A DNA stretch of 64,000 nt from Escherichia coli (GCF_003334315.1 NZ_QOWR01000023.1); one strand, 5' to 3'. Shown: positions 27,569 to 33,773, counted from the first letter of the stretch. The notes: a model not told the origin generated them from the sequence alone. Program-made: numbers and translations.

Positions 27569-27610
27569 CCCGTAACTTATTTTTGCCAAAATTTTGGATA
27601 CAGAATAAAT

Positions 27611-28618
27611 ATGTCTCAACTCAATGATAGTGACATCATCCTTTTTGAGTATAATTTTCATTATCAAAATATAAGATCTAAAAATACTCTTGATATAGCA
27701 TTTGGTATTGACAGAAATTTTCTTTTTGGATGTGGTGTAGCCATCGCATCTATTCTATTAAACAATAGAGAAATCTCTTGTGAATTTCATGTTTTCACAG
27801 ATTATATCAGTGATAAAGACAAATTATATTTTTCTGATTTAGCAAAACAATATAATTCAAGAATTAATATTTATGTTATCAATTGTGATAAGCTGAAGTC
27901 ATTACCAAGCACGAAAAACTGGACTTACGCAACATATTTTCGATTTATAATTGCAGATTATTTCTATCATAAACATGAAAAAATACTATATCTTGATGCA
28001 GATATTGCTTGCAAGGGTAGTATTAAAGAACTCTTAGATTATCAATTTTCTACTAATGAAATTGCCGCAGTTGTAGCTGAAAGAGATGTTGAATGGTGGC
28101 AAAATCGAGCCTCGGTATTAACTACACCACAGTTAGCTTCTGGATATTTCAATGCTGGTTTTTTACTGATAAATATTGATGAGTGGAATCTAAATAACAT
28201 TTCGTCAAAAGCTATTGAAATGTTGCGTGACCCAGATTGGGTAAGTAAAATCACCCACCTTGATCAAGATGTACTGAATGTATTATTGAATGGTAAAGTG
28301 AAGTTTATTTCGGAGAAATATAATACCCGATATAGTATTAACTATGAATTAAAAGACAAAGTTGATAATCCAGTCAATGATGACACCGTGTTTATACACT
28401 ATGTGGGACCTACAAAACCCTGGCATGAGTGGGCTGACTATCCGGTGTCACGTAGTTTTTTGATCGCCAAAGCAGCTTCTCCGTGGAGTAAAGAAGATTT
28501 ACTTAAACCTGTAAATAGCAATCAGTATCGGTATTGTGCAAAACATAAATTTAAACAAAAGCATTATATGGCAGGCATTTTTAATTATTTAAAGTATTAT
28601 AAAGAAAAATGCTTCTAA
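27611..28618 (+). CDS. waaI: GT8 outer-core alpha-1,3 glycosyltransferase (WaaI/WaaO-like, R3-type)
   Basis: 335-aa GT8-family ORF; AT-rich; first gene after waaP. Confidence 0.8.
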   Translation: MSQLNDSDIILFEYNFHYQNIRSKNTLDIAFGIDRNFLFGCGVAIASILLNNREISCEFHVFTDYISDKDKLYFSDLAKQYNSRINIYVINCDKLKSLPSTKNWTYATYFRFIIADYFYHKHEKILYLDADIACKGSIKELLDYQFSTNEIAAVVAERDVEWWQNRASVLTTPQLASGYFNAGFLLINIDEWNLNNISSKAIEMLRDPDWVSKITHLDQDVLNVLLNGKVKFISEKYNTRYSINYELKDKVDNPVNDDTVFIHYVGPTKPWHEWADYPVSRSFLIAKAASPWSKEDLLKPVNSNQYRYCAKHKFKQKHYMAGIFNYLKYYKEKCF

Positions 28619-28643
28619 AGATTTAAGGTTAAAATAATTCATT

Positions 28644-29351
28644 ATGATATATAATAAAACGATAAATGGGTTGAAAGTTTTCATAAAAGATAATGATCCC
28701 TTTTATGAGCAAGTTCTAAATGACTTTTTAACTTGCAGGGTTAAAACATTAAAAGTTTTTCGTTCTATTGATGATACTAAAGTCATTCTTATTGACACTG
28801 CTCGTGGACCTCTTGTACTTAAAGTTTATGCGCCAAAGCATAAAATGACCGAACGTTTCTTAAAATCTTGCATAAAAAAAGATTATTATGAAAATTTAAT
28901 TTATCAAACCGATCGGGTACGTGGTGAAGGCATCCAATCAATTAATGACTATTTTTTGCTAGCTGAACGTAAAACATTAAATTTCGCTCATTATTATATT
29001 ATGCTCATTGAGTATATTGAAGGTGTCGGGTTAAATGAGTATTTGGAAATTTCTGAAGATCTGAAGGATCAATTATCAGAATCGATAAAAGAGTTGCATC
29101 AGCATGGAATGGTGTCTGGCGATCCTCATAAAGGAAATTTTATAGTATCCGAAAAAGGTTTAAGACTAATTGACCTTTCAGGTAAAAAAACAACCGCTGT
29201 TTTAAAAGCAAAAGATCGCATTGATCTTGAACGGCACTATAATATAAAAAATGAATTGAAAGACTTTGGCTATACATATCTTATATTCAAAAAGAAAATT
29301 AAAAAAGTAATCAGGGATGTAAAAGTCAAACTAGGATTGAAGAGCAAATAA
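28644..29351 (+). CDS. waaY: LPS core heptose(II) kinase
   Basis: 235-aa ORF, WaaY/RfaY-like; AT-rich. Confidence 0.8.
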   Translation: MIYNKTINGLKVFIKDNDPFYEQVLNDFLTCRVKTLKVFRSIDDTKVILIDTARGPLVLKVYAPKHKMTERFLKSCIKKDYYENLIYQTDRVRGEGIQSINDYFLLAERKTLNFAHYYIMLIEYIEGVGLNEYLEISEDLKDQLSESIKELHQHGMVSGDPHKGNFIVSEKGLRLIDLSGKKTTAVLKAKDRIDLERHYNIKNELKDFGYTYLIFKKKIKKVIRDVKVKLGLKSK

Positions 29352-29375
29352 TGATTATGATGAAGGGTAATTAAA

Positions 29376-31540: not shown

Positions 31541-31543
31541 ATA

Positions 31544-31570
31544 AAAAGGCCGCATTATGCAGCCTTTTTT
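31544..31570. terminator. bidirectional terminator between convergent waaD and waaL
   Basis: aaaaaggccgcattatgcagcctttttt: near-perfect hairpin flanked by A and T runs. Confidence 0.7.
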
Positions 31571-31575
31571 ATTTT

Positions 31576-32784
31576 TTACTTGTTTTTCATCGCTAATAAT
31601 AAGCCGGCGTAAACGCCTAATAAATTTGGTTCAATTTGTTCTACGTTTCCACGGATAACAAAATAACCTATAAAAGATAGTAAGATTATATAATATGCAT
31701 TATATGGTGAGCGATATTTATTCTTGACGCCATTTTTTATACACTCTTTCAATATTGCACAGTATAGCATCATAAGACTTACCAGCCCTAATAAACCAGT
31801 GCCAAACCAGATGAATAGCGCAAAATTATGTGGCCCTATTGATTGTCTAAAGGTCCATTCTGGATAATCAATGACACGTTTATTATAGACATCTTTATAT
31901 GCAACGTTACCGTAACCATAACCAATAACAGGATTTTCTAATATTAGATCGAGTGCGCTGCCTTGAGTACCATTTGCATAGCGATAAGAACTATTAGTTT
32001 GTTGAAGTTTATACGTTAGCTTTGCGGTCATCTCCTTATGTGTGAAAATAACCGACAATGCAATGATGGCAACCATTACTCCTACTAATAGTAACTTCCA
32101 TTGTTTAAACATCAGAATCCATATTAATCCAATGACTAACACGGAAAGCCAGGCCCCTCTGGATAAAGTTCCTAATATCAGAAAAATAAAAATAACGCTT
32201 AGAACCACAAAAGAAATGCGGTATTTTGCTGATTTGATAAGCCAGAGATTTAACAATGCAGGGAATAAAAAGACCATCGAGTCAGAAATGCTACGGTGTC
32301 TATAATCTGCGAATGGCATTATCCCTTGTTGATAGTCCTTATAATAGGTAATCAATTCAGAAAAACAGCGTAAGCCCAACGCACTAATAAATGAGAAGAA
32401 AACGATTTTTTCGACATCTTCTCTTTTCTCGTCTCTCAATATGATCGGTATTGCTATTGTGCATAGTAAAGTATTCTCAATAATAGCTTTGAAAATTTCC
32501 TTCATGCTAGCACCTGCATCAGGGGATTGAAGAAGTGACAGCAATGCAGCAATAGTTAATATGGCAACACTACCAAAAAGAAATGTTTTAAATAGTGAGA
32601 GATAGTGTTTTGGCCGTTTGCAGAGATAGACGATTGTCGTTATTGTCATAAGAATAACAATAAGATGTTTATACCTTGTAATCCCACCCAAAAAATAGGT
32701 GGTAATGAATAAGAATACGAGAGCTCTGTTCCAGTACGCTATCCAGTTTTTTTTCTCGAGAGAGAAAAATAATGTTGAGGTCAT
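31576..32784 (-). CDS. waaL: O-antigen ligase
   Basis: 402-aa polytopic membrane ORF, last gene of the hldD-waaFCL operon; sequence does not match my recollection of the K-12 WaaL; start overlaps the waaC stop. Confidence 0.85.
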   Translation of the reverse strand: MTSTLFFSLEKKNWIAYWNRALVFLFITTYFLGGITRYKHLIVILMTITTIVYLCKRPKHYLSLFKTFLFGSVAILTIAALLSLLQSPDAGASMKEIFKAIIENTLLCTIAIPIILRDEKREDVEKIVFFSFISALGLRCFSELITYYKDYQQGIMPFADYRHRSISDSMVFLFPALLNLWLIKSAKYRISFVVLSVIFIFLILGTLSRGAWLSVLVIGLIWILMFKQWKLLLVGVMVAIIALSVIFTHKEMTAKLTYKLQQTNSSYRYANGTQGSALDLILENPVIGYGYGNVAYKDVYNKRVIDYPEWTFRQSIGPHNFALFIWFGTGLLGLVSLMMLYCAILKECIKNGVKNKYRSPYNAYYIILLSFIGYFVIRGNVEQIEPNLLGVYAGLLLAMKNK

Positions 32785-33773
32785 CTTATCTCCGATGTCA
32801 ACTTATTGGTTATTATTTCAAGATTTAAATTTTGAAAAACGGTTTGAGCTGGCAAATCTGCAAGAGACATACTTGTAGAACGACACTCTACTTGATTCTT
32901 CCCATACCCACCAATTAATCCCGGATCGGTTGGTCCATAAACCGTGATATTGGGTCTATCCAGTGCCGCCGTTAAATGGCTTAACCCCGTATCCACCGAC
33001 ACTACAAATTTAGCCCCGGCCAGCACGCGGGCAACGCCTTCCAGACTCATCTTCGGCAATACTTCAACATAAGCAAATCCTTCCGCCAGTCGTTTCGCCC
33101 GTTCTTCCTCATGCGGCGCGCCCCACGGAAGTTTAATCCGTATTCCTGAATCAGCCAGTAAACCAATCAATTCTCGCCAGTGTTCTTCCGGCCAGTGTTT
33201 ATCATCACGGGTCGTCGCATGAAGAAATACGGCATATTCGCCAGCATCTGTAGGCAGGTTCGTCAGAAAATGCTGTGCGATAGCATAATCGCCCTGGGTT
33301 TGCGGTTTGCTATAGCCCAAACTTTTGGCAAACAGTTCGCGGGTGCGTTCTACGGCGTGCTGCTGTTTTGCAATATGATGCTTACAATTGTAAAACAGGC
33401 TGGCTAAAGGTTCGCGAGCGGTTTGCCAGTCCAATCCATGCTTTACGCCATGCGCCAGACGTGTCACCAGTGCCGCGCTTTTTACCAGCCCCTGAGCGTC
33501 GATAACTGCGTCATAGTTCTCTGCTTGTAGCGCTTCACGAAACGCTTTGCGTTCAGCTTTTATGGGGGCCGAGAACCAGGCTTTACGCCAGCGACGTATT
33601 GCCACAGGAATAACTCGCTCAACGGCAGCGTGCCAGGAAGGAATCTGTGCGAACCCTTCTTCCACCACCCAGTCAAACTTAATCCCTGGGATTGCCTGCT
33701 GGGCATCAGTGAGTGCGGGCAACGTATGGAGAACATCGCCCATCGACGATGTTTTAACGATCAAAACCCGCAT
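32781..33773 (-). CDS. waaC: LPS heptosyltransferase I
   Basis: 330-aa GT9 ORF MRVLIVKTSSMGDVLHTLPALTDAQQAIPGIKFDWVVEEGF. Confidence 0.93.
   Translation of the reverse strand: MRVLIVKTSSMGDVLHTLPALTDAQQAIPGIKFDWVVEEGFAQIPSWHAAVERVIPVAIRRWRKAWFSAPIKAERKAFREALQAENYDAVIDAQGLVKSAALVTRLAHGVKHGLDWQTAREPLASLFYNCKHHIAKQQHAVERTRELFAKSLGYSKPQTQGDYAIAQHFLTNLPTDAGEYAVFLHATTRDDKHWPEEHWRELIGLLADSGIRIKLPWGAPHEEERAKRLAEGFAYVEVLPKMSLEGVARVLAGAKFVVSVDTGLSHLTAALDRPNITVYGPTDPGLIGGYGKNQVECRSTSMSLADLPAQTVFQNLNLEIITNKLTSEIR

Follow-up and report, generated by a model that had tools for sequence, protein, structure and literature searches.

The 64,000-nucleotide stretch of Escherichia coli DNA analyzed here (GCF_003334315.1, NZ_QOWR01000023.1), referred to below as the window, contains the waa (rfa) core-oligosaccharide locus of lipopolysaccharide (LPS). 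The window is collinear with positions 3,765,751-3,832,723 of the K-12 strain MG1655, and its waa locus is almost certainly the canonical R3 allele, a cassette moved by homologous exchange. A first-pass annotation of the DNA had assigned the four genes between waaP and waaL to the R3 order waaI-waaY-waaJ-waaD, and this assignment was borne out by the identity to the O157:H7 strain Z1832, by typing primers, by published deletion arms of the R3 prototype F653 and by the absence of the marker genes of other core types. In the comparisons below, the five core types are represented by MG1655 (K-12), CFT073 (R1), ESY002 (R2), O157:H7 Z1832 (R3) and JNEC-KY177 (R4). The closest genome found was that of CP53, with 6 single-nucleotide polymorphisms (SNPs) in 28.4 kb.

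The gene content of the locus was obtained from the open reading frames (ORFs) and their family matches. It is listed below by position in the window, where the start of waaP, as well as that of the neighboring gene yibB, was adopted from the annotation of the near-identical loci of O157:H7 and CP53.

24599-25657, plus strand: waaQ, heptosyltransferase III; ORF, named rfaQ in the annotations of O157:H7 and CP53.
25654-26778, plus strand: waaG, glucosyltransferase I; ORF.
26771-27568, plus strand: waaP, heptose I kinase; NCBIfam RfaP equivalog, 479 bits.
27569-32892, no strand: R3-specific AT-rich block, defined by blastn breakpoints, G+C content, O157:H7 identity and full-length genome matches.
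27611-28618, plus strand: waaI, glycosyltransferase of family 8 (GT8), 335 amino acids (aa); NCBIfam NF011718 "LPS 3-alpha-galactosyltransferase" equivalog, 620 bits.
28644-29351, plus strand: waaY, heptose II kinase, 235 aa; NCBIfam RfaY equivalog, 390 bits.
29376-30389, plus strand: waaJ, GT8, TTG start, 337 aa; Pfam Glyco_transf_8 (1e-62) and Glyco_transf_8C.
30398-31540, plus strand: waaD, glycosyltransferase of family 4 (GT4), 380 aa; Pfam Glycos_transf_1 (1e-34) and Glyco_transf_4; NCBIfam NF012028, 770 bits.
31576-32784, minus strand: waaL, O-antigen ligase, R3 allele, 402-aa membrane protein; Pfam Wzy_C (1e-21); RfaL equivalog, 693 bits.
32781-33773, minus strand: waaC, heptosyltransferase I; RfaC equivalog, 633 bits.

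As listed, a GT8 gene, waaY, a second GT8 gene and a GT4 gene lie between waaP and waaL, which is the series that the first-pass annotation had described. The K-12 order that it had set against this series, waaS-B-O-J-Y-Z-U, agrees with the annotation of NC_000913.3. The NCBI annotation pipeline (PGAP) names waaJ in the same way in O157:H7 and CP53.

The R3 block differs from that of O157:H7 Z1832 at 6 of the 5,324 positions, corresponding to a nucleotide identity of 99.9%. The whole block was also found at 98.2-100% identity in 1,364 of the 5,426 complete E. coli genomes searched with megablast (query 27500-32900), O157:H7 strains included. At the protein level, WaaI, WaaY, WaaJ, WaaD and WaaL are 99.6-100% identical to their O157:H7 counterparts, WaaI and WaaL being 100% identical. 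The best identities in the K-12, R1, R4 and R2 loci are 54-58% for WaaI, 52-57% for WaaY and 40-44% for WaaJ, while WaaD reaches 57% with the R2 WaaK and about 23% in the K-12, R1 and R4 loci, where the match is to WaaG. For the R3 WaaL, the only tblastn match among these loci was the R2 WaaL, with an identity of 51.5%, and there was none in K-12, R1 or R4. The best match was thus to the R3 locus, and to no other, for each of the four genes and for waaL. The exact WaaL sequence belongs to a UniRef cluster named after Q9ZIT8_ECOLX and the exact WaaY sequence to the cluster of Q9ZIT5_ECOLX. We take Q9ZIT8 and Q9ZIT5 to be the reference-locus entries of 1998. The R3-specific waaL allele, by which R3 loci are typed in silico by Leclercq et al. 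2021 (PMC8715443), is the allele carried by the window.

A private SNP was observed at position 31124, where the window has A (Thr243 of WaaD) and both CP53 and O157:H7 Z1832 have G (Ala). It is the sole difference from CP53 inside the R3 block.

The core type was also determined by in-silico PCR, for which the nine LPSTyper primers (PMC13293308) were used, allowing up to 3 mismatches. The primers R3-R (29460-29482, in waaJ) and R3-F (30461-30480, in waaD) matched with 0 mismatches and give a product of 1,021 bp, which is the published size of the R3 amplicon (PMC13293308). The other seven primers, for K-12, R1, R2 and R4, had no match in the window with 3 or fewer mismatches. The control strains were typed correctly, with products of 1,442 bp for MG1655, 842 bp for CFT073 (R1) and 380 bp for JNEC-KY177 (R4), and with the R2 pair for ESY002. 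Ten deletion arms published for F653 (about 520 nucleotides in waaG, waaI, waaJ and waaD; PMC9927288) fall at the expected gene boundaries, nine of them exactly and one with 2 mismatches. The arms of waaD and both ends of waaI are exact, and those of waaG match exactly at 25577-25656 and 26758-26837. For Shigella flexneri 2457T, all six published arms (PMC3184986), including both ends of waaI and those of waaJ, are also exact. The gene names are settled because the arms of F653 and S. flexneri fit the gene boundaries.

A resemblance to R3 in gene order could in principle be shared by another or a hybrid core type, such as K-12, R1, R2, R4 or an R2/R3 chimera. The relationship of WaaD to the R2 WaaK and of WaaL to the R2 WaaL, which makes the right-hand ends of the two loci distant relatives, is the observation in favor of such an origin. 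However, nothing in the other four loci is more than 58% identical to the five block proteins, the R3 primer pair is the only one that matches, and the 6 SNPs relative to O157:H7 are scattered over 5.3 kb with no internal breakpoint. The marker genes of the other types were searched by tblastn (E <= 1e-3) across the 64-kb window, where no match was found for waaS, waaB, waaZ, waaU and waaL of K-12, for waaL of R1, for waaX and waaL of R4, or for waaZ and waaB of R2. The R1 gene waaV has no counterpart in the cluster and matches only waaH, which lies elsewhere, and that weakly (32% over 139 aa), and waaT and waaW of R1/R4 match waaJ at 37-44%. Another or a hybrid core type was rejected on the basis of the primers, tblastn and the marker genes, and its probability is practically nil.

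The R3 allele is placed in a chromosome that resembles that of K-12. Relative to MG1655, the identity was 99.3-100% per 300 bp over 21500-24276. From 24277, between waaA and waaQ, the sequences diverged abruptly; homology was lost within the R3 block, and the identity was back to 100% at 32893. The K-12 breakpoints are sharp, at 24276/24277 and 32892/32893, and delimit the following segment.

24277-32892, no strand: whole segment unlike MG1655, from the waaA-waaQ intergenic region to about codon 294 of waaC, with 99-100% K-12 identity outside.

This segment is larger than the R3 block since waaQ, waaG and waaP also diverge from K-12, with nucleotide identities of 63-83% per 300 bp. The WaaQ protein is 98.6-99.4% identical to those of O157, R1 and R4, whereas it is 73% identical to those of K-12 and R2. 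WaaG is 99.5% identical to those of O157, R1 and R4 and 90% to that of K-12 (88-90% for R2 and K-12 together), and WaaP is 84% identical to that of K-12. All three proteins are at least 97.7% identical to those of R1, R4 and O157, and the values for R2 are similar to those for K-12. From these sequences, the waaQ of the window belongs to the R1/R3/R4 allele class. Relative to CFT073 (R1), homology of about 98.5% continued until the waaP stop codon at 27568, which marks the left edge of the R3-specific block in this comparison, and resumed at 32893. Within the block, the nucleotide homology to the aligned K-12 and R1 loci nowhere exceeds about 68%.

On the right, the junction is found within waaC, at about codon 294, where the WaaC proteins of the five types agree through ...GYGKNQ and then part at once. 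The C-terminal tails of 25-37 residues are type-specific, and the length of WaaC is 318-330 aa among the five types. In the window, the last 37 codons of waaC (32781-32892, 33.9% G+C) belong to the type-specific block. Beyond waaC, the right flank consists of the following genes.

33777-34823, minus strand: waaF, conserved right flank; ORF.
34833-35765, minus strand: hldD (rfaD), conserved right flank; ORF.

The WaaF and HldD proteins are 99.4-100% identical to those of all five type loci, and their genes have 51-54% G+C. The first-pass annotation had described waaQ/G/P on one side and waaC/F/hldD on the other as conserved flanks of normal G+C content. This description applies to waaF and hldD; however, waaQGP has 47.7% G+C and is conserved only within R1/R3/R4, being divergent from K-12 and R2, and the 3' end of waaC lies in the block. 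The WaaC tail might be functionally matched to its cassette rather than a neutral passenger, for example through translational coupling to waaL, which in R3 overlaps the end of waaC by 4 bases, or through contact of heptosyltransferase I with downstream core-assembly proteins. Such matching is improbable in our estimation, but if true, it would account for the recombination junction being fixed at about codon 294.

The differences from MG1655 outside this segment are unevenly distributed. Only 3 of them fall in 1-10,800 and none in 44,023-53,054, whereas about 240 clustered SNPs occur between 10,802 and 44,022, a zone of about 33 kb centered on waa. The pattern suggests that homologous recombination left one or more tracts, longer than the cassette, around a switch of core type within a common clonal frame. 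The K-12-like frame outside about 10.8-44 kb, where the difference from K-12 is 0-0.1%, together with a wholly different segment at 24277-32892, supports allelic exchange by homologous recombination. On a modest reading, the 10.8-44.0 kb zone may represent a single import, large and recent, by which the core type was switched, in which case the strain and K-12 would form a near-isogenic natural K-12/R3 pair. Compared with O157:H7, the flanks diverge by 0.65-1.5% and the cassette by 0.11%, roughly a tenfold difference, which is consistent with the R3 cassette having spread between lineages later than the lineages themselves split. The claim of the first-pass annotation that the central segment was replaced by horizontal exchange is thus upheld by the K-12-like frame and by the difference in divergence between cassette and flanks; the AT-richness that it had used as an indication is common to all types and does not mark R3.

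Four points weigh against this interpretation. The link to the prototype F653 is made through about 700 nucleotides of published primer arms and through identity to O157:H7, which is typed as R3 in the literature. The core type was called from the DNA sequence alone, and a point mutation that alters the core would be possible, Thr243 of WaaD being the only private change found. The low divergence of the cassette across phylogroups could partly reflect constraint instead of recent spread. Finally, the replaced lineage may be K-12 rather than that of the window.

A smaller divergent patch was observed in dinD (14141-14965, minus strand), where 214 bp in the 5' part of the gene (14722-14935) are only about 45% identical to K-12. 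The sides of the patch are 97-99% identical to K-12, the length of the gene is unaltered, and CP53 has the same allele. From the alignment, the patch looks like a small allelic mosaic.

The base composition changes at the edges of the R3 block. There is a sharp drop in G+C content at 27.5 kb, from about 52% to 33%, and a recovery at 32.9 kb, the average of the R3 block (27569-32892) being 33.1% with 500-bp windows of 0.28-0.41, compared with 52.1% in the left and 51.7% in the right core flank. The waaQGP genes are intermediate in this respect. The AT-rich block reported by the first-pass annotation was therefore confirmed by windowed G+C. However, the outer-core blocks of the other types have a similar composition, namely 33.3% G+C in K-12, 35.3% in R1, 34.6% in R4 and 35.4% in R2. 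Because AT-richness at 33-35% G+C is common to all five representatives, it is no mark of R3 as a recent import. A low-G+C central region in waa loci has been described by Leclercq et al. 2021, who inferred horizontal transfer and proposed a model of homologous recombination (PMC8715443).

If the AT-rich block were a recent strain- or lineage-specific foreign island, brought by a mobile element from a low-G+C donor, the sharp fall from about 52% to 33% and the return at the block edges would be expected. In such a case, however, the same composition would not be found at the same site in all five core types, nor the block in as many as the 1,364 of 5,426 complete genomes given above. The junctions lie in or beside conserved genes, at the waaP stop and at about codon 294 of waaC, as homologous recombination predicts. 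No tRNA or tmRNA gene was found in the window, no direct or inverted repeats flank the block (the repeats seen are GT8 paralogue motifs of waaI and waaJ), and no integrase, insertion sequence (IS) or transposase is present among the ORFs of the window or the annotations of the near-identical loci. Likewise, Leclercq et al. 2021 reported no phage, IS or transposon (Tn) remnants (PMC8715443). The genomic-island model was rejected for the lack of a tRNA gene, flanking repeats, IS or integrase, and we regard a foreign island as highly improbable.

The low G+C content may also have arisen without any horizontal origin, through long-term local mutational or selective pressure, for which the codon usage of membrane proteins and glycosyltransferases or H-NS/RfaH-regulated expression are possible causes. 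The five types would then be ancient balanced alleles that arose inside Escherichia. The low G+C content in all five types and the intermediate value of the flanking waaQGP (44-48%) are in agreement with this explanation, and no donor is known outside Escherichia and Shigella (PMC8715443). On the other hand, a drop of 19 points in G+C within 5 kb, with sharp edges inside waaC, would be hard to produce in this manner alone. We consider local pressure unlikely, though a more serious candidate than the hybrid core type or the foreign island; it bears only on the ultimate origin of the block and is compatible with exchange between E. coli lineages. 

On the favored reading, that of homologous exchange, the R3 block is one of five old AT-rich allelic cassettes that share one chromosomal site in the species. 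These are carried from one lineage to another by homologous recombination within conserved flanking sequence and not on a mobile element. One of the two lineages, that of the window or K-12, has in all likelihood switched its core type in this way.

A second AT-rich gene, with 36.9% G+C, adjoins the waa locus.

36069-36926, plus strand: yibB (htrL); ORF.

The gene is found in the window, K-12 and O157:H7, while in CFT073, JNEC-KY177 and ESY002 kbl directly follows hldD. This presence/absence polymorphism has no one-to-one correspondence with the core type. In addition, CP53 has an IS5 between hldD and yibB (28556-29536 of the CP53 locus, corresponding to about 35800-36050 of the window), which is absent from the window, so that the window does not stem from CP53 itself.

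Two further features concern the expression of the locus.

24511-24549, plus strand: JUMPstart element, located in the waaQ operon leader; Rfam RF01707, 55.2 bits (gathering score, 35).
31543-31569, no strand: hairpin with an A-run and a T-run, AAAAAGGCTGCATAATGCGGCCTTTTT; terminator scan, 12-pair stem with 5 G-C pairs.

The JUMPstart element carries the ops site for RfaH-dependent antitermination. The motif GGCGGTAGCGTG was seen in the JUMPstart alignment and is conserved with K-12, and the Rfam scan of 20-40 kb gave nothing beyond this expected element. The genes waaQ-G-P-I-Y-J-D are predicted to be transcribed as one operon from the JUMPstart/ops leader, presumably in dependence on RfaH. 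The hairpin fills the 35-bp gap that separates the convergent genes waaD and waaL and, judging from its stem and flanking runs, is probably a bidirectional intrinsic terminator. On the opposite strand, waaL is the final gene of the hldD-waaF-waaC-waaL operon. The promoter scan gave 33 sites against a shuffled expectation of 32.7, that is, no excess.

The core would be assembled as follows. WaaG is expected to add the first outer-core hexose, a glucose, after which WaaI would add a galactose; WaaJ would supply the glucose to which the O antigen becomes attached, and a glucose side branch would be due to WaaD. WaaP and WaaY would phosphorylate the inner-core heptoses HepI and HepII, respectively, and WaaL, transcribed convergently, would ligate the O antigen onto the finished R3 core. 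In the literature, WaaI is an alpha-1,3-galactosyltransferase adding the HexII galactose (PMC9927288), WaaJ adds the HexIII glucose, and WaaD is a glucosyltransferase that branches HexIII with a glucose (PMC9927288, citing Kaniuk et al. 2004). The latter conflicts with PMC3184986, where N-acetylglucosamine (GlcNAc) is assigned to WaaD. Public sources hold both names for the identical protein, the label "LPS N-acetylglucosaminyltransferase" being given by PGAP and NCBIfam NF012028 by homology to WaaK. Kaniuk and coworkers also reportedly described, in 2004, that GlcNAc is attached non-stoichiometrically to the galactose by WabB, an enzyme encoded on a plasmid and not at this chromosomal locus.

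A different confusion was observed in the text of PMC13293308, where the R3 primer target "waaD" is called ADP-L-glycero-D-mannoheptose 6-epimerase. The primer R3-F actually lies in the GT4 gene waaD and not in hldD/rfaD (34833-35765), and the confusion of waaD with hldD (rfaD) is a gene-name collision in the literature.

In a rough tally of the complete genomes, R1 was found in about 1,826, R3 in 1,364, K-12 in 1,032, R4-like loci in about 700 and R2-like loci in about 480, where the last two are estimates from partial matches; on this tally, R3 is the second commonest core type. It is a minority in phylogroup A, with 11.9% of 1,352 genomes (PMC13293308), and is linked with strains that are positive for the locus of enterocyte effacement (LEE) or enterohemorrhagic (EHEC) and with phylogroups B1, D and E (PMC8715443, PMC13293308). 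The finding is in itself an ordinary one, as the R3 gene order, the low-G+C center and the recombination model have all been published already. Its use lies in the fact that the core type decides the recognition of rough and partly rough E. coli by phages, antibodies, lectins and predators. An R3 core on a K-12-like chromosome is useful for predicting phage host range and O-antigen ligation, and the strain could serve as a natural near-isogenic comparison to K-12.

Among the known R3 loci, those of F653, O157:H7 and Shigella flexneri 2a have the same order as the window, waaQ-G-P-I-Y-J-D with convergent waaL-waaC-waaF-hldD; unlike in O157:H7, the chromosomal background in the window is K-12-like and not that of EHEC. 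The locus of K-12 MG1655 occupies the same site and shares the JUMPstart leader, the operon position of waaL behind hldD, a similarly AT-rich outer-core block and flanks that are 99-100% identical (waaA and upstream on one side; codons 1-293 of waaC, waaF, hldD and yibB on the other). However, K-12 carries waaS-B-O-J-Y-Z-U and an unrelated waaL, and its waaS, waaB, waaZ and waaU are without counterpart in the window.

The R1 (CFT073) and R4 (JNEC-KY177) loci resemble that of the window in waaQGP, which is 98-99% identical, and in the right junction in waaC. They differ in carrying waaO-T-Y-W-V, with waaX in R4, and in having waaL on the waaQ strand; the identity of their homologues does not exceed 54%, and no similarity is detectable between their waaL alleles and that of R3. 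The R2 locus (ESY002) shares a convergent waaL preceded by a GT4 gene, and its WaaK, described as a GlcNAc transferase (PMC13293308), and its WaaL are the nearest relatives of the right-hand end of R3 among the four other types compared. The remainder of the R2 locus is K-12-like (waaB, waaO, waaJ, waaY and waaZ), and its waaQGP is of the K-12 class.

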